From the UHGV virus genome UHGV-1946153: a stretch of DNA of 13,440 bases. The stretch is one strand, 5' to 3'. Every line of letters starts with the position of its first letter. The first letter of the stretch is position 1. The position numbers were made by a program, and so were the translations under genes. This stretch comes from a virus. The notes below the pieces were generated by a model. The model was not told the DNA's origin. It searched no databases and worked only from the letters and a program-made list of their open reading frames with translations. Shown here one piece after another: positions 3,124-12,104 of this stretch.

Positions 3124-3735
3124 TCACTCTCCTTTGATGCGAATACCAGCGGCGCGTGGCACATTAACTTCCACGATGCGCACTGTTGGTTTGTACATCT
3201 CAATCGCTGTCAGCCAGTCAGCTCCTGTCATGCGCTTTTCCGCATCGCCATTAGTCCACTGAACCGGTACACCAATAGCCTTCATCGCGATTTCTATTTC
3301 CCCGGCAATGGCGCTTTTTCCGCAACCAGTAAAACCAGATACAACGACCAGAACTTCACCTTTGGCTGGTTTTATTTCCCGTGCTTCCAGTTCTGCAATG
3401 CGCTTACTTCCATCCGAGATAACGCNNNNNNNNNNNNNNNNNTGCTCGTTGAGTTTTGATTTTGCCAACTCCAGTTGTTTTGTTAGTTCTGCAATACGAC
3501 AAACATCGTTGATACGCGTTTCCTCTAATGCGTTGCTCTCATCCAGTAGCGCCAGCACGGTTTCTGGTCCGGCCAGAAATTTGAAGGCGTTGAGGGCATC
3601 AATATCAACACCGCTATCTTTAAGTTCCTGTTCGCTTATCAGATCATCATCAACTGGCAACATTAACAGGCGTTCCATTGCTGGAGTTGCACGTTCTGCC
3701 GCCTCACGTAGTGCCTGGTAATTAATTTCGCTCAC
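3124..3735 (-). CDS. Hypothetical protein, about 203 aa, possibly Ead/Ea22-like; interrupted by an N-run
   Basis: GTG start at 3733-3735 with AAGGAGG 7 nt upstream, overlapping the upstream stop (GTGA). Acidic helical N-terminal half. C-terminal half contains a Walker-A-like GFTGCGKS. The family name is recalled from memory, not verified. Frame continuity across the 17-N gap is assumed. Confidence 0.6.
   Translation of the reverse strand: MSEINYQALREAAERATPAMERLLMLPVDDDLISEQELKDSGVDIDALNAFKFLAGPETVLALLDESNALEETRINDVCRIAELTKQLELAKSKLNEXXXXXXXVISDGSKRIAELEAREIKPAKGEVLVVVSGFTGCGKSAIAGEIEIAMKAIGVPVQWTNGDAEKRMTGADWLTAIEMYKPTVRIVEVNVPRAAGIRIKGE
3426..3442. other. Assembly gap / masked bases (17 N)
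   Basis: Run of N characters inside the CDS at 3124-3735. Confidence 0.99.
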
Positions 3736-5088: not shown

Positions 5089-5571
5089 TTATTTGATAAG
5101 AAGTGAAGGTTTCCCAACCTTGAGTTGAGCGCCGGGGATATTTATTCCTGCTTTTAGTTGGTGCTTGATTGCCAACTTGTCGGCTTTAATTGTCGTTTCG
5201 AACTCAACGTATTCAGGAGGAAGGGCGCTTGAGTCGATGATTTCTACAGTTTCTGACGGTTTGCGGATTGTTACCTGGTGAATACCTGCTCTAATCTTTT
5301 TCTTGCCAACCATTTCAAGCGATGACGCTATATATGATTTGATGCTGTCAATCTTATTTTGAATTACTGCGGCTCGCTCATTCAGCGACTTTGCCTCTTC
5401 CTTGAGGCGTTCAGCATAACCAGATTCATTTTTAATGACGGAAAGAAGTTGCTCTATTTTATCGGTAAATTCTCCTTCCATGCCTTCTATTGTGTCAGCA
5501 ATCATCTCTGGTTCTAAATCTGAATCCATCAATTTTGCGTATTCATTGGCAATTTCATACAGTTTGCTCAC
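5089..5571 (-). CDS. Siphovirus Gp157-like protein (recombination-module accessory), about 160 aa
   Basis: GTG start at 5569-5571 with GGAGG and a 6-nt spacer; the track ORF starts at TTG 5577. Acidic helical N-terminus then ...GKKKIRAGIHQVTIRKPSETVEIID...LPPEYV...GAQLK resembles the Gp157 family as recalled. Lies immediately downstream of recT. Confidence 0.65.
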   Translation of the reverse strand: MSKLYEIANEYAKLMDSDLEPEMIADTIEGMEGEFTDKIEQLLSVIKNESGYAERLKEEAKSLNERAAVIQNKIDSIKSYIASSLEMVGKKKIRAGIHQVTIRKPSETVEIIDSSALPPEYVEFETTIKADKLAIKHQLKAGINIPGAQLKVGKPSLLIK

Positions 5572-6457
5572 TGGCAACCTCCAGTTTCGCTTTGCATTCT
5601 GCGTAAATGGCTTGTACGTTCTGCTGCAATTTCATTCCAGATGTCAGGCGATATGCTTCTGCAAAATATCGCTTCAAATCATCCATGTTTTCTGCCTGAG
5701 CCATTTCATCGCAAAGAAGTTGTGCTTTATCCATTATTTCCTGCTGGCGTTTCCGTTCATCTTCGCGGATATCTTCCTCTGATTTGTGCGGCATAACTGG
5801 TTCCTGATGCATACCTTCATCTTCGTTAAGAAGGTGAATGGCATTATCCAGTCGCTGGGCTTTAGGCCAGTATTTGCTGGCGCGTTTAACTATTGTTTTA
5901 CGCGCCATCTCTTCCCAGAATGTTTTCCACGGTCCATTCTTTGCCTTGCTCGTTGCTTCCACAGCTTTAATTTCTGCCAGACTCATTTCTTCAGTCAGGT
6001 AGTCACCATCTGCTGTTTTAACCGTGCAATAACCTCCAACAATAGAGCCTCGCTCACCAAATGCGTTGTATTTGTGGGTTGGTGCTGAATCAAGGCCATT
6101 TGATTCATAGGTGTCGTTTGAGTACACCAGTTTGCATTGCCCCCACTTAATTGATCCTGTCGATTGCGCAAGATGAAGTAATCCCATGTAACTGATATCA
6201 AGGCACACCATGCCGTCGCGAGGAACCAGATAAGCCAGTTTGCTGGCCGGGTTTAAGGTGATGCCGATCGCCGCAACATTGATGATGGCGTTCTGTGCGC
6301 TGGTTGGATTTGCCAGTGCTGTTTTAGCCAGGTAATCGTTTTTCTGGAAATACTGAATTGCAAACTGGCTTTCCTTAGCCCATGTCACCGTCTGTTCAGT
6401 CAATGCTCCGCAGAATAACTGCTCCTGCTGTTTAACGAATTCAACGATATTGCTCAT
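5555..6457 (-). CDS. recT: RecT-family single-strand annealing recombinase, 300 aa
   Basis: Motif GPWKTFWEEMARKTIVKRASKYWP matches the RecT signature of the Rac prophage protein (GPW...HWEEMAKKT...R..KYLP). RBS GGAG 7 nt before the ATG at 6455-6457; ATGA overlap with the upstream gene. Confidence 0.9.
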   Translation of the reverse strand: MSNIVEFVKQQEQLFCGALTEQTVTWAKESQFAIQYFQKNDYLAKTALANPTSAQNAIINVAAIGITLNPASKLAYLVPRDGMVCLDISYMGLLHLAQSTGSIKWGQCKLVYSNDTYESNGLDSAPTHKYNAFGERGSIVGGYCTVKTADGDYLTEEMSLAEIKAVEATSKAKNGPWKTFWEEMARKTIVKRASKYWPKAQRLDNAIHLLNEDEGMHQEPVMPHKSEEDIREDERKRQQEIMDKAQLLCDEMAQAENMDDLKRYFAEAYRLTSGMKLQQNVQAIYAECKAKLEVASEQTV

Positions 6458-7038: not shown

Positions 7039-7048
7039 NNNNNNNNNN
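7039..7048. other. Assembly gap / masked bases (10 N)
   Basis: Run of N characters in the intergenic region. Confidence 0.99.
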
Positions 7049-7146: not shown

Positions 7147-8115
7147 TTAGTAGGTTATTTTTGTTGCGAATACTTCGCCTTTTACGATGGCTGTTATGAT
7201 ATTTTTAGCAACATCTTCTGGTGCGCCAACCTTGATAAGGTCAGCAAGTATTTTGTTATTTACTTCTTTCCGGTGAGCTTTATCCTTTGCTCTACGCTCT
7301 TCTTCGTCCTTGATTCTTTTTTCTTCTGCTATTCTGGCTTGCTCTTTTGCTTCAGCCTCGCGCCGGATTCGTTCAGCCTCCTCCTGTGCTTTTCGGCGTT
7401 CTGCTTCAATTGCCGCCTGCTTTTCTCTTTCAGCTCGTTCTGCTGCCTCTTTTGCTTCGCGCTGTGCTCGTTGCTCGGCTTCAATGCGTTCACGCTCTGC
7501 ACGTTCCGCTGCGGCCTTAGCTTCTGCTTCTCGCCTTGCTGCTGCTTCAATTTCGGCTTTTGCCTTTGCTTCGGCTTCAGCTCTGGCTTTCTCTTCAGCT
7601 TCTCTTTGTAAGCGTTCTTCATGCTCTCGCTTTTCCTGCTCCGCTTTGAGTCTTGCCTCTTCTCTTTGGCGGTCAAATTCGCGATCCATCAAAATCGCTA
7701 TTTCATGGTCAGACTCAATTTGCTTTGCGAGAGCTTCAGCTGCTGCCTTAGCTTCTTCTTCGGCTTTAATCCGCGCCTGTTCTTCCTCATAATCAGTAAG
7801 AGGCTGGCGCGCCTTGGCTTTCAGTTCATCAAGGCGATCGCGCACTGTCTTGCGGTTGGCATCAATTAGCTTTGGAATTTCCTTCAGTTCAGCAACAAGG
7901 TCTTTGCCAAGACCATCGAGATATGTTTTCGTCTGCGCAACTTTATACGCCAGAGAAGCGATCTCCTTTCTGCCCTTTGCCGTTGTGATATCAGGCACAA
8001 AGGACATAACTTCACGTTCAACCTTTTGAAGGATTTCTTCAATCTGGTCGGCAGACTGAAATACAGTCATTGCATTTGCTTTTTCAATAACAACTAAATC
8101 TGTTACTTCACTCAT
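7147..8115 (-). CDS. Hypothetical protein, 322 aa, with a long Glu/Ala/Lys/Arg-rich helical region
   Basis: ATG at 8113-8115 with GGAGG 4 nt upstream. A globular N-terminal domain is followed by about 170 residues of EAKR-rich sequence typical of a single alpha-helix or coiled coil, then a short C-terminal domain. Confidence 0.75.
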   Translation of the reverse strand: MSEVTDLVVIEKANAMTVFQSADQIEEILQKVEREVMSFVPDITTAKGRKEIASLAYKVAQTKTYLDGLGKDLVAELKEIPKLIDANRKTVRDRLDELKAKARQPLTDYEEEQARIKAEEEAKAAAEALAKQIESDHEIAILMDREFDRQREEARLKAEQEKREHEERLQREAEEKARAEAEAKAKAEIEAAARREAEAKAAAERAERERIEAEQRAQREAKEAAERAEREKQAAIEAERRKAQEEAERIRREAEAKEQARIAEEKRIKDEEERRAKDKAHRKEVNNKILADLIKVGAPEDVAKNIITAIVKGEVFATKITY

Positions 8116-8151
8116 ATATCCTCCATCAAAAAATCGCCCTCACATTGGAGG

Positions 8152-8225
8152 NNNNNNNNNNNNNNNNNNNNNNNNNNNNNNNNNNNNNNNNNNNNNNNNN
8201 NNNNNNNNNNNNNNNNNNNNNNNNN
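8152..8225. other. Assembly gap / masked bases (74 N)
   Basis: Run of N characters between the 322-aa gene and the AT-rich cassette. Confidence 0.99.
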
Positions 8226-8257
8226 TCGTTGGAATGAATACACAGTGCTTATTCGTA

Positions 8258-8728
8258 CTAATAAAACACCCAATTTTCTGTTTCTTGGTTGTGTCCAAAG
8301 TTATATTCAATATCTGGTGTTGATGTATCAATATTCTTCATCCCATCAACAAGAGTTGATACAACAGCTAAATCTTGTTTGATTCGCATCAAATGGTATT
8401 TCTTCCGGCGCAATAAACTTTCAATGGCAAGTTTCTTCGTTGGGAATGCAAAAGATCTTTCTGCATTTTTTGCTACTTTCTTAATTGCATATCTATTTCT
8501 CCTTTGTTTCCATTCCTGTAACCACTGATTTGGTGCTGGTTTAAAATTAACAATCCAATGCGCAGGAACCAACCATGCATAATGCTCTGTCTGATGAAAA
8601 GCTATATATTGAAGTGCGAATATTTTGATCCCATCTTCTTCAACTGTCGCTTGGAATCTCCAGAAAACAGGCATTCCATCATGTTCAGTTTCTGATTCAG
8701 GAAAAGGTACGCTCCATGATTTTGTCAT
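8258..8728 (-). CDS. Hypothetical protein, 156 aa (AT-rich accessory cassette)
   Basis: ATG at 8726-8728 with a GAGGTGA RBS. Local GC looks clearly lower than the flanking DNA (estimated by eye, not computed). Soluble, Trp/Lys-rich, no recognised domain. Confidence 0.65.
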   Translation of the reverse strand: MTKSWSVPFPESETEHDGMPVFWRFQATVEEDGIKIFALQYIAFHQTEHYAWLVPAHWIVNFKPAPNQWLQEWKQRRNRYAIKKVAKNAERSFAFPTKKLAIESLLRRKKYHLMRIKQDLAVVSTLVDGMKNIDTSTPDIEYNFGHNQETENWVFY

Positions 8729-8774
8729 ATCTCACCTCAAATAATTCAGTGCAGTGTTTATTCTGTTGTTTATA

Positions 8775-8800
8775 CCAAAAGAAGGCCGACTATGCGGCCT
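8775..8800 (-). terminator. Putative intrinsic terminator between the two cassette genes
   Basis: Minus-strand hairpin AGGCCG-catagt-CGGCCT followed by TTCTTTTGG. Confidence 0.35.
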
Positions 8801-8841
8801 GTGATGTTAGATTTACTTTCATTTTTGAACGGCAGCTACAA

Positions 8842-9105
8842 TTATGATGGAATGTACAAAACCACTTTCCAGTTCATAGAAGTGGATGATGGCATAAAAT
8901 AATCCCACGACTCATTAGCTACTAACTCTTTATTAACTGTGGTGGCAGCAATTTCGGCATCACCTTTATTATTAAAAATGTCGTTCGAATACTGACATTT
9001 TCCATCTGCATGCACATATAAAATATCATATGTATCTGTATCGTAATAACCGCTTATGTCTCTGATAACAATTCCTGGCTTCAATGATTTAATTTTCTTG
9101 TCCAT
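8842..9105 (-). CDS. Hypothetical protein, 87 aa (AT-rich accessory cassette)
   Basis: ATG at 9103-9105, 8 nt after the N stop codon, with the same GAGGTGATAT leader as the 156-aa gene. No recognised domain. Confidence 0.6.
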   Translation of the reverse strand: MDKKIKSLKPGIVIRDISGYYDTDTYDILYVHADGKCQYSNDIFNNKGDAEIAATTVNKELVANESWDYFMPSSTSMNWKVVLYIPS

Positions 9106-9113
9106 ATATCACC

Positions 9114-9413
9114 TCAAATAAGTGGTTTGCTGCCTAATTTCATTTTCTGGCGACCAACACAAGTCACACCCATTTCACTGCGTGGCTTGCGGTAGTAAAT
9201 ACGGTTCTGTTTACGCTCGACTTCTTCTGCCTTCTTGCAGCGAAGGCTTCCGAGCGATGCTGCTTTATCTGCTCTGACGCAACCAGAGAGCTTTAGCGCA
9301 ATTTTTCGCGCCAGTCGCTGCTCTTGCATTGCCTGTTCACGTTGAGCCTGTCTGCGTGCTCTGCGGCGATTTCTGGCGTTATCGTCAGCCAGATATGTAA
9401 TGACTACTGTCAT
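9114..9413 (-). CDS. N: Antitermination protein N, 99 aa
   Basis: C-terminus ...ERKQNRIYYRKPRSEMGVTCVGRQKMKLGSKPLI closely parallels lambda N (...ERKNQRTWYSKPGERGITCSGRQKIKGKSIPLI). N-terminal arginine-rich motif NARNRRRARRQAQREQ. RBS GGAGG 5 nt before the ATG at 9411-9413. Confidence 0.88.
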   Translation of the reverse strand: MTVVITYLADDNARNRRRARRQAQREQAMQEQRLARKIALKLSGCVRADKAASLGSLRCKKAEEVERKQNRIYYRKPRSEMGVTCVGRQKMKLGSKPLI

Positions 9414-9727: not shown

Positions 9728-10378
9728 TTATGGAAGGTTTGCTAGTTTTGCATCGACAACTACGCCGATGATTTTGCAGTTCCCGTTGATCTCGATCATC
9801 GGATATTGTGGGTTAAGTGGTTTTAGAAACTTCCTGCCTGCATCAATAACTAACTTCTTGAAAGTTGCCTCGTTTTCTCCTTCGAGCTTTGCAACTACCA
9901 GTTTCCCGTTACGCGGCTCTACTTCAGGATCGACGAGTATTATCATTCCTTCAGGGATACTGAGACCGGCCGGAGCCGTCATTGAGTCTCCCTTCACGTC
10001 CAACCAAAACGAATCGTCTGAACAGTCTACGGTTGTATCGTACCAGTTATCTATTGCACGCTTATGATATGGTTCTACAGCTTCCATCCAGCATCCTGCG
10101 CTCACCCAGCTAATCAGAGGGTATGACCCTCTTGGATCATGCCTACTGTGATAGGCAATGTTTGAAAGACTTTCCTCTCCTTTCATCAGATAGTCAGGGG
10201 AACACTTCAACGCATTAGCCAGGGCGAGAAGATTCTCTCCATTTGGCTCTGTCTCAGAGCGTTCCCACTGAGATATGGCAACATTAGACACGCCGACCAT
10301 CTTTCCAAGTGCGGCCTGCCTGATCTTGAGTTCTTTTCTCCGAGCGCGAATGCGCTCTCCCATCAATTGAGTTTTCAT
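9728..10378 (-). CDS. cI: CI-type prophage repressor (XRE HTH N-terminus, LexA/S24 autocleavable C-terminus), 216 aa
   Basis: N-terminal HTH LGKMVGVSNVAISQWERSE. Ala-Gly cleavage-site context PLISWVSAGCW (lambda cI: FSHVQAGMF). Catalytic Ser in VKGDSM and Lys in LVVAKL. No upstream Shine-Dalgarno, so a leaderless lambda-cI-like start is plausible. Confidence 0.92.
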   Translation of the reverse strand: MKTQLMGERIRARRKELKIRQAALGKMVGVSNVAISQWERSETEPNGENLLALANALKCSPDYLMKGEESLSNIAYHSRHDPRGSYPLISWVSAGCWMEAVEPYHKRAIDNWYDTTVDCSDDSFWLDVKGDSMTAPAGLSIPEGMIILVDPEVEPRNGKLVVAKLEGENEATFKKLVIDAGRKFLKPLNPQYPMIEINGNCKIIGVVVDAKLANLP

Positions 10379-11275: not shown

Positions 11276-12104
11276 TATGGGGTATGTCTCTATACACCGC
11301 CAGTTTATGGACAGCAGGCTCTATAAGGACTCTCAGGCAGTACATCTTTGGCTTCACTTAATCCTCAAGGCTAATCACGAATCTACTGTCGTCAATACGG
11401 ATATCGGTCCGATAACTGTTGATCGCGGTCAGATGATAACTGGACGCCCGTCGCTGGTCAGAGAAACATTCATCCCCGACAACAAAGTTCGGAGCTTATT
11501 ACGGACTTTTGAGTCGAAAGGGATGCTTAATATTTGCTCGATGGGGAAGAAATTTAGCCTGTTTACAATCGTTAAATATGACGATTTTCAGGCAAAAAAT
11601 TGTCCAACGGTTGTCCAACGGTTGTCCAACGCAAACACCAGTAATGGCGCGGCTCTCAGCGGAGATTGTCCAACGGTTGTCCAACGGTTGTCCATAAACA
11701 ATAATATAAATAATATCTCTAATACTGACGTATTAGAGAGTGCCACAGCAGACAAAAAGTCTGACAAGAAAAAACCTTCCGTTAGCTGTCAGGATGTTGT
11801 CGATGCTTACCACGAAATCCTTCCTGAAGCGCCAAGAATCCGCGCACTGAATGACAAGCGTAAAAACCAGATCCGAACGTTCTGGCGCAAAGCCGGAGTG
11901 ATAACCCGCCAGCTTGACGGGCATGGGTTCACGATGCAGGACTGGAGAAATTATTTGAGCTACGTAGGCGAAAATTGCCGATGGATGTTCGAAGAACGCC
12001 CAAACCATCAACGCGGAACCGTCTGGCACAAAAAGGGATTTGATTTCCTGCTTAACGACAATACCTACCTGAAAGTTCGTGAGGGTGAACACGATGACCG
12101 ATAA
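11276..12104 (+). CDS. Replication initiator (lambda O / P22 gene 18 analogue) with the origin embedded in the gene
   Basis: ORF contains the iteron array and AT-rich region and is followed by an overlapping helicase gene. Start chosen at ATG 11276 (AGGAGG, 8-nt spacer); alternative ATG at 11214 (AGGAG, 6-nt spacer) gives the 296-aa track ORF. No direct sequence similarity to lambda O was recognised; the call rests on synteny and iterons. Confidence 0.8.
11600..11698. repeat. Origin iterons: six 11-bp direct repeats (TTGTCCAACGG) in two triplets
   Basis: Repeats at 11600-11610, 11611-11621, 11622-11632, a 33-bp spacer, then 11666-11676, 11677-11687 and a degenerate 11688-11698. Lies inside the initiator CDS, as in ori-lambda. 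Confidence 0.8.
11716..11739. repeat. Perfect 10-bp inverted repeat in the AT-rich region next to the iterons
   Basis: TCTCTAATAC-tgac-GTATTAGAGA inside AT-rich sequence (about 11694-11740). Candidate DNA-unwinding element or binding site. Confidence 0.5.

Follow-up and report, generated by a model that had tools for sequence, protein, structure and literature searches.

The stretch analysed here, 13,440 nucleotides (nt) of the UHGV virus genome UHGV-1946153 (the window), covers the early-left part of a lambdoid prophage whose immunity region is P22-like. Its centre of interest is a short sequence, hereafter the leader, that stands in near-identical form directly ahead of two small accessory genes. 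Reading leftward on the minus strand, the order is repressor (9728-10378, which we take to resemble P22 C2), a pL-like promoter, nutL, the antiterminator gene N, leader copy 1, a gene that we call DK87, a terminator-like hairpin, a spacer with a trailing AA, leader copy 2 and a homologue of the phage 933W gene L0079.

The N gene (9114..9413, minus strand) is an open reading frame (ORF) of 99 amino acids (aa) with the C-terminus ...GSKPLI*; it matches phrog_271, 'anti-termination protein N-like' (E=4.8e-37), and its Pfam N_peptide match, at 20.2 bits, lies under the curated cut-off of 27.9. Cassette 1, DK87 (8842..9105, minus strand), encodes 87 aa (phrog_33140, E=8.9e-49), and its stop lies 41 nt before the hairpin. 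Cassette 2 (8258..8728, minus strand) encodes 156 aa and is identified as the L0079 homologue by phrog_1636 (E=2.7e-112) and by the 933W annotation. Between the two, a terminator scan found an intrinsic-terminator-like hairpin, AGGCCG-catagt-CGGCCT followed by TCTTTTGG (8775..8800, minus strand). It runs into the 30-nt spacer GGTATAAACAACAGAATAAACACTGCACTG (8776-8747), homologous to the ral-ea10 intergenic sequence of lambda, which with the AA filler occupies 8745..8776 on the minus strand.

Two copies of a translation-initiation leader

The first-pass annotation had reported a near-identical leader in front of both cassette genes, its overlap with the end of N, and its second copy behind a putative terminator hairpin, all of which we recovered. 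The minus-strand repeat, TTATTTGAGGTGA(T/G)ATATG, occurs twice in the window, as TTATTTGAGGTGATATATG at 9121-9103 (copy 1) and as TTATTTGAGGTGAGATATG at 8744-8726 (copy 2). Each copy is 19 nt long, the starts lie 377 nt apart, and 18 of the 19 bases agree, in exact blocks of 13 and 5 nt. The length of 20 nt first given to the repeat (9103-9122 and 8726-8745) does not stand, the extra base being mismatched (C9122 versus A8745). A search of the window for other copies, proposed earlier as a check, returned these two alone with up to 3 mismatches tolerated, and 200 dinucleotide-preserving shuffles of the window gave 0 matches, so that no copies are expected by chance.

Copy 1 (9103..9121, minus strand) belongs to two genes at once. 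The N ORF closes with CCA CTT ATT TGA (9125-9114), and its last two codons (Leu-Ile) and stop provide the first 8 nt of the copy, that is, (C)TT ATT and a TGA (9116-9114) overlapping the Shine-Dalgarno (SD) sequence GAGGTGAT (9115-9108); the DK87 ATG follows at 9105-9103, leaving a stop-to-start gap of 8 nt. Copy 2 (8726..8744, minus strand) begins with 8 nt corresponding to the N 3' end and continues with the SD and the start codon of the L0079 homologue; the hairpin (AGGCCGcatagtCGGCCT, then TCTTTTGG, 8800-8775) lies 30 nt upstream. Both ATGs are the RefSeq start codons in Escherichia coli strain E1 (NZ_CP104503.1), which is 100% identical here.

The proposed role in translation initiation is likewise well supported. 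GAGGTGA(T) pairs with the 16S rRNA 3' end at -12.2 kcal/mol in copy 1 and -11.5 kcal/mol in copy 2, ranking first and fourth among the SD duplexes of the 20 gene starts in the window, and GAGG lies 6 nt from the annotated ATG. The leader probably drives efficient initiation, and copy 1 probably also couples translation of DK87 to termination on N. Translationally coupled gene pairs in which the upstream stop overlaps the SD of the next gene occur in bacteria and phages. Copy 1 has this layout, the UGA of N overlapping GAGGUGA with the next AUG 8 nt downstream, and another N allele (ending ...AYYD*) has the same TGA-GGTGA overlap. In contrast, at copy 2 the upstream open frame amounts to 2 codons, and neither there nor in the 933W arrangement does an upstream ORF end at the leader, indicating that coupling is not required for the leader to work.

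As for transcription, a consensus scan places the pL-like promoter at 9636-9608 (minus strand), and upstream of N lies a nutL-like region (9562-9521) with a boxA-like GGCTCTTTAACA (9562-9551) and a boxB-like hairpin (9538-9521), both on the minus strand. The pL-like site is the only minus-strand match; the scan, which weak or atypical promoters could escape, found no sigma-70-like site on that strand within 9121-8726. Given that no promoter-like site lies between the leaders, the L0079 homologue is presumably transcribed from pL by N-modified polymerase reading through the hairpin, and transcription of both cassettes would depend on pL and on this N-mediated read-through.

Both cassettes are poor in GC (34.1% in DK87 and 36.3% in the L0079 homologue, with 49.7% in N and 45.5% in the window), which fits recently acquired accessory genes. 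Their PHROGs families carry the function label 'unknown', neither product matched an entry in Pfam or PADLOC, and the best hit of a PDB sequence search (E ~0.1) was unusable, as was a single-sequence AlphaFold2 model of the L0079 homologue (predicted local distance difference test score, pLDDT, 42.8; predicted template modelling score, pTM, 0.21). A literature search returned no paper pairing L0079 with 933W.

The leader at the edges of exchanged cassettes

The arrangement in the window is rare, while its parts are common. Comparison of 9420-8230 with phage records by BLAST gave 260 matches, 0 of them with 80% query cover. Part of the region is matched in 1620 of 5426 complete E. coli genomes, the full N-DK87-L0079 arrangement in 2, and in 2 more it stands behind a different N. 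DK87 itself is present in 8 of the 5426, as a rare and variable occupant of the first slot after N: behind a full N (the window, EC28), behind a 13-nt fossil of the N end (PM06121, SCU-124), or, in MS1657, behind the ...AYYD* allele of N, with TGAGGTGATATATG alone in common. Phages 933W and vB_EcoP-611R6 and many Shiga toxin (Stx) phages lack DK87 and carry the N 3' end, one leader and then L0079 directly. In vB_EcoP_phi367, the leader leads into orf28+ral; behind this pair come a hairpin and the same spacer, and then L0079 with a leader of its own. Since DK87 and L0079 are each present without the other, the idea that they form an obligate two-gene system was rejected.

A motif-anchored scan of IMG/VR for the exact motif retrieved at least 120 contigs, in which conservation of the motif is a matter of construction. 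These contain at least 132 leader copies ahead of at least about 15 unrelated ORF families, including orf28+ral (at least 55 copies), L0079 (at least 42) and genes for proteins of 83, 149, 107, 62, 87, 118, 60, 56, 53 and 52 aa. Among the matches listed, pairwise identity is 0.95-1.0 over approximately -30 to 0 from the ATG, drops to 0.4-0.6 within 10-20 nt downstream and declines to ~0.4-0.5 by 70-100 nt upstream.

Two further samples were drawn independently of the motif. Sample (a) comprises 80 IMG/VR loci sharing the same N allele (at least 96% identity). In 64 of them the N stop carries the exact leader, and at least 9 unrelated genes are found in the first position behind it, including L0079, orf28+ral and the 83-, 149-, 107-, 52-, 87- and 62-aa genes. 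In another 9 of the 80, the same N end leads into a different SD, TTATTTGAGAGGAATTAATG, ahead of a 207-aa gene. The product of this gene has an Nmad5 domain (nucleotide-modification-associated domain 5, PF18757, E=5.9e-71) and takes the first slot in, e.g., loci L100 and L118. Sample (b) comprises 79 loci sharing the same L0079 allele (100% identity), and the exact leader is present in 78 of them, in at least 5 different left-hand contexts: the full N ORF (19 loci), a long N fossil (43), the spacer plus an 8-nt fossil (8) and short fossils (8). Thus, when N is constant, the sequence switches right after the ATG, and when L0079 is constant, it switches at or just before the leader. In both samples the boundary is conserved between divergent modules, as expected of a linker.

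These observations bear out the suggestion that the leader lies at a junction of cassette exchange, with at least nine first genes after one N, at least five left contexts before one L0079 and, moreover, all four combinations of two left ends with two cassettes. The last point concerns the joint between spacer and leader, CACTGAA|leader, behind which most loci have L0079 and three (L130, L139, L150) have the 149-aa gene. The 149-aa gene elsewhere follows N|leader, so that each of {N end, spacer} is found with each of {L0079, 149-aa gene}. Because neither flank of the 19-mer is constant, either a crossover took place within the leader or the exact joint was re-created. The wider matrix of left contexts (N ORF, 52-nt, short and spacer plus 8-nt fossils) against right-hand cassettes (orf28+ral, L0079, 149-aa, 83-aa, DK87, 107-aa and others) is largely filled, and the leader has different partners on both sides, which is the reassortment expected of a linker.

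Cassettes are also stacked. Locus L130 reads N, 62-aa gene, hairpin-spacer-leader, 149-aa gene, hairpin-spacer-leader, L0079, and SCU-124 reads N, 45-aa gene, fossil-leader, DK87, hairpin-spacer-leader, L0079. Both L130 and L262 hold a stack of three cassettes, with a leader copy ahead of each. Two further observations were excluded from the evidence. An apparent tandem hairpin-spacer-leader with a truncated L0079 (54 aa) ahead of the full L0079 in L133 (~11,420-11,700) may be an assembly artefact, there being an ambiguous base in the sequence. The G/T polymorphism at leader position 14 is seen in combination with most partners on either side, as crossovers inside the leader would produce, but it may also stem from recurrent mutation.

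Fossils of N, a probable founding joint and the right edge of the slot

In copy 2, TTATTTGA is non-coding, the frame that ends at its TGA being only 2 codons long, and we read it as a probable fossil of the N 3' end. The N protein of lambda also ends in ...PLI*, with the codons CTT ATC TAG and different downstream DNA, which argues that TTATTTGA is coding sequence of this type of N and not a generic part of a ribosome-binding site (RBS). Longer relics occur at other loci: ...TTTTT|GGCAGCAAGCCAC plus leader after the ral terminator (L016, L092); ...TTTATTTT|CGCAGCAAACCAC plus leader in loci of the L013 type and also ahead of DK87 in E. coli PM06121 and SCU-124; |GCAAGCAAACCAC after another terminator (L038); and |GGCAAACCAC (L207). 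Fossils preceding L0079 measure 8, about 10-14 or 52 nt. The longest is that of 933W (L001 1495-1565), where a different N (...KQLTAR*) has its TGA exactly at the point of fusion with a 52-nt relic of the window-type N (…TGACTTGTGTTGGTCGCCAGAAAATGAAATTAGGCAGCAAACCACTTATTTGA), which is untranslated and followed by the leader and L0079. It is this long fossil, in place of a full N ORF, that most loci of sample (b) have (43 of 79).

Lambda itself has a diverged copy of the leader, CTATTTAAGGTGATATATG, ahead of orf28 (L125 1545-1620, lambda ~34,345-34,420). Ahead of this copy stands TTTACTACCGCAATCCA, similar to ATTTACTACCGCAAGCCAC (9199-9181) from the interior of the window-type N, so that lambda may hold a remnant of an old N downstream of sieB.

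The right edge of the first cassette is not copy 2, which is our main correction to the first-pass annotation. Its suggestion that the repeat could mark cassette boundaries stands for the leader as left edge, and fails for copy 2 as the right edge of cassette 1. The hairpin is common to at least 6 different cassettes upstream of copy 2, and 10 aligned loci become alignable exactly there. The alignments thus indicate that the first-slot cassette has the leader as its left border and the hairpin plus lambda-like spacer (8800-8745) as its right one, and that copy 2 belongs to, and travels with, the L0079 module. A terminator homologous to 8800-8783 also shapes the ends of several unrelated slot proteins. 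Ral and the 83-, 107-, 207-, 56- and 53-aa proteins share the C-terminus (K/E)AA, and their stop codon falls within the loop of the hairpin (AAG GCC GCA TAG TCGGCC), as seen in L003, L008, L028, L118, L119 and others. The 3' joints of these genes therefore fall inside the terminator, which supplies the last codons of the fused gene. The lambda GenBank records carry no annotation of tL1 or tL2, so that no established lambda terminator is named here.

In lambda, ral is followed by the hairpin, by GGCATAAATAACAGAATAAACACTGCACTG and then directly by TGTATTCATTCC..., which opens a conserved structured element before ea10. In the window, the spacer (8776-8747) is followed by AA, leader, L0079, TAGTAC, GAATAAGCACTG (8254-8243) and only then TGTATTCATTCC (8242-). 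The two orders together indicate that the end-of-slot sequence GAATAA..CACTG lies at either side of the L0079 module. On the right of the module, GAATAAGCACTG (8243..8254, minus strand) repeats GAATAAACACTGCACTG of the spacer (8763-8747), and such a second end-of-slot sequence is what an out-of-register exchange would be expected to leave. In MS1657, DK87, the hairpin and the spacer lead straight into TGTATTCATTCC, with no L0079, and phages of this type match the predicted single-cassette parent, with 933W-type phages as the probable other parent.

The joint between spacer and N fossil, at 8745|8744, recurs as CACTGAA|TTATTTGAGGTGA (fossil part TTATTTGA) in 35 IMG/VR contigs. Since it is identical each time, a single founding event with later spread is likely. 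The simplest history of the second copy would be one out-of-register, non-homologous exchange that joined ...GCACTG(AA) to TTATTTGA.

The slot is anchored on its right by the conserved structured element (8128..8242, minus strand), which has three hairpins, the last a terminator. Positions 8152-8225 of this element are masked as N in the window, and their letters were recovered from the E1 genome; the masked 74 nt are identical to the lambda sequence between ral and ea10. The element folds with a minimum free energy of -45.8 kcal/mol (z=-4.68), a search of 8128-8242 against Rfam matched no family, and it may represent an unannotated early-left RNA or a processing or termination element. Farther left come a gene for a 322-aa coiled-coil protein, cIII, kil and RecT. 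The gene next to the element varies, being ea10/ssb in lambda and 933W and, in the window, that of the highly charged 322-aa protein (phrog_1376, 7147-8115, minus strand). The latter has internal imperfect DNA repeats of 27-37 nt, and its product had no match in Pfam or PADLOC. Short masked runs of N are also present at 7039-7048 and 3426-3442.

A probable portable linker, its rivals and its relatives

We consider it very probable that the repeat is a portable translation-initiation linker derived from the junction between N and the first accessory gene of the pL operon, and that it was duplicated through linker swapping and stacking. From the repeat, the coding status of its copies, the mosaic boundaries, the fossils and the reassortment, all of which are observed, we infer the following order of events. 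Copy 1 would be the native junction, at which a ribosome that terminates on N is left 8 nt short of the next ATG, and copy 2 would be an N junction carried along with an L0079-type gene, whose usual place, in 933W and most E. coli prophages, is directly behind N or an N remnant. In an ancestor, out-of-register exchange between two lambdoid genomes would have stacked two cassettes and thereby duplicated the leader. The leader with the conserved N 3' end would then serve as the left linker of a hypervariable slot, and the terminator with the spacer as its right linker. Unrelated AT-rich accessory genes could be replaced, stacked and deleted by recombination in these linkers, each recombinant keeping a working RBS and N-dependent read-through. 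Once illegitimate joints had been founded, the recombination would be homologous, plausibly by phage RecT/Red or RecA. That the leader promotes exchange, rather than merely surviving it, is our inference.

Several points weigh against this reading. Efficient pairing is quoted as needing a minimum of 23-27 bp with Red-beta and of 31-34 bp with RecA (PMC3945230), and the leader, at 19 nt, is shorter than either. Crossovers confined to the leader would thus be expected only seldom, and much of the pattern may be due to selection on such infrequent events. The reading does not account for the 2-nt AA filler at the joint between spacer and fossil, and the two motif-independent samples represent one N allele and one L0079 allele, respectively. 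In addition, a tally of loci need not equal the number of independent events; L130, L139 and L150 have one architecture and may go back to a single event. The leader together with an N fossil (~30-70 nt) and the hairpin-spacer-leader unit (75 nt) do exceed the minimal pairing lengths. Deletion of DK87 between the two copies in the window would yield the common N-leader-L0079 arrangement, but should be rare.

The alternative that survives best, though we regard it as unlikely, is that the leader is a passive scar, a by-product of random illegitimate recombination followed by selection at gene boundaries (the Hendrix/Juhala view), without any share in later exchanges. At least one event was indeed illegitimate, as the joint between spacer and 8-nt fossil lacks homology and has a 2-nt filler, the several lengths of N fossils point to several non-homologous events, and the leader falls under the published pairing lengths. 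However, one identical 19-mer links every major left context to the four commonest cassettes, and the spacer|leader joint stands before two genes that are also found behind N|leader, which calls for a crossover in the leader or for exact re-creation. Nor would a scar readily account for change exactly after the ATG when N is held at 96% identity or more, and exactly before the leader or fossil when L0079 is held.

We think it quite improbable that the leader is instead a shared cis-regulatory operator through which a common factor (a translational repressor, an RNase or a small RNA) co-regulates the early accessory genes; its duplication would then be due to selection for joint control instead of past recombination. 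The leader is common to the cassettes of the slot and very highly conserved across loci, including the non-coding TTATTT of copy 2. Yet the RNA of spacer plus leader folds no better than shuffled sequence (z=0.11), Rfam returned nothing at the gathering threshold, and TTATTTGA is accounted for by N coding. Some slot cassettes, moreover, use another SD behind the same N end, such as TTATTTGAGAGGAATTAATG for the Nmad5 gene. An operator would in any case be compatible with a role at the junction.

Independent convergence of both genes on a near-consensus SD with optimal spacing, akin to the generic strong RBS that the first-pass annotation had named as a possible refutation, can be set aside almost completely. 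It is true that GAGGTGAT is complementary to the 16S rRNA 3' end and that sporadic 19-mers turn up elsewhere. In a scan of one genome per bacterial species, the exact 19-mer in N context was confined to Escherichia, and the other 19 matches, scattered ahead of unrelated genes in Firmicutes and other groups, are chance matches. But the identity reaches 6 nt beyond the SD on its upstream side and also takes in the bases between SD and ATG; in 1.42 Mb of related lambdoid phage DNA, GAGGTGAKATATG occurs 173 times, 166 of them with the TTATTT prefix. GAGGTGA occurs only twice in the window, where the other genes use different SDs, and the longer N fossils at other loci effectively refute convergence. 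The generic-RBS explanation was accordingly rejected, on the TTATTT linkage, the cross-bacterial scan and the SD energies.

A dedicated site-specific cassette system with the leader or hairpin as recombinase target, like integron attC, is just as improbable despite the array-like layout of up to three cassettes, each with hairpin, spacer and leader at its borders. The window encodes no recombinases other than RecT (5555-6457, PHROGs match) and an ordinary tyrosine recombinase of the lambda-type prophage integrase kind (1-1143, Arm-DNA-bind_1 + Phage_integrase) ~8 kb from the array; the leader lies in no inverted repeat, the hairpin has a simple GC stem of 6 bp and a T tail, and the joints fall at variable positions in the N 3' end, unlike a precise crossover. 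The array departs further from an integron in that no IntI-type integrase with attI lies beside it, its neighbours being N, the coiled-coil protein, cIII, kil and RecT, and in that attC sites are imperfect inverted repeats of 57-141 bp, where the window has an 18-nt GC stem-loop with its T tail. An integron-like system was rejected on these grounds.

The portable linker is best regarded as a new, well-resolved example of the classical lambdoid linker and of ordinary phage mosaic evolution, not as a new mechanism. The genome papers of Juhala et al. 2000 (HK97/HK022) and Clark et al. 2001 (HK620) reportedly debate the topic of linkers. A literature search returned no paper on this N-end leader, and a Pas-sRNA preprint that was checked proved unrelated. 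The modular theory of Botstein and Campbell, as outlined in PMC2839356, has conserved 'linker' boundary sequences in lambdoid phages. The leader resembles these in being a short boundary sequence kept between unrelated modules, with different partners on both sides, and, as far as that outline goes, in that exchange puts the incoming gene under correct transcription and translation signals. It differs in its length of 19 nt (~35-70 nt with fossils), in being a relic of coding sequence plus RBS, and in being duplicated within single genomes with cassettes stacked in tandem.

Another relative in kind is the promoter-early stem-loop (PeSL) of T4-type phages, a unit of ~75-100 bp with a terminator stem-loop, located between small non-essential ORFans (Arbiol et al. 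2010, PMC2839356). PeSLs lie in the hyperplastic region, to which insertions, deletions and replacements between close relatives map (PMC2839356). The terminator-spacer-leader unit described here is similar in size (75 nt, 8800-8726), stands behind at least 6 cassettes and occurs twice in L130. In the window, however, the repeat is the 19-nt leader only, not the whole unit. PeSLs also carry a strong early promoter, whereas the unit here supplies an RBS and relies on N-antiterminated pL, the consensus scan having found no promoter-like site in 8726-8800 on the minus strand. Lacking a promoter, the unit is not a member of the PeSLs. A further difference is that PeSL mini-circles have been demonstrated experimentally, while no counterpart is known for the present unit.

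DK87 also recalls a moron. It is an extra AT-rich gene of atypical composition with its own terminator, lying between N and L0079, which are adjacent in relatives. It differs in having no promoter of its own detected by the consensus scan, where that of a moron allows it to be expressed from the repressed prophage, in sharing the orientation of the operon and in being flanked by conserved linkers. Accretion of morons is described, in the account given by PMC2839356, as independent of conserved flanks (Hendrix et al. 2000).

The finding bears on whether lambdoid mosaicism arises from homology at linkers or from random joining followed by selection, since both are visible at this locus: illegitimate founding joints, then reassortment at a 19-nt sequence. 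For annotation, it explains the recurrent N-like fragments and the 'duplicated' RBS sequences downstream of N. Leader and terminator together delimit a hypervariable slot in ~30% of complete E. coli genomes, and the slot, which holds ral and many uncharacterized AT-rich genes, can be mined for candidate counter-defence or exclusion genes, Ral being an anti-restriction protein (PMC12373910). More tentatively, and with the odds somewhat against it, the post-N slot of Escherichia lambdoid phages may be an organised, homology-driven gene-capture array and a counterpart of the PeSLs. Accessory genes would each sit between a left linker (N fossil plus RBS) and a right linker (the terminator, whose stem can provide the final two or three codons and the stop), and RecT/Red could insert, stack or delete them with their expression preserved. 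If so, the leader could also be a tag for harvesting early, probably counter-defence, genes, Ral and the Nmad5 protein being known occupants of the slot. For the lambdoid phages, the locus offers a base-resolved case of early accessory genes being swapped and stacked without loss of expression, in which the incoming gene brings an RBS still bearing the stop codon of its former neighbour and leaves its terminator behind.

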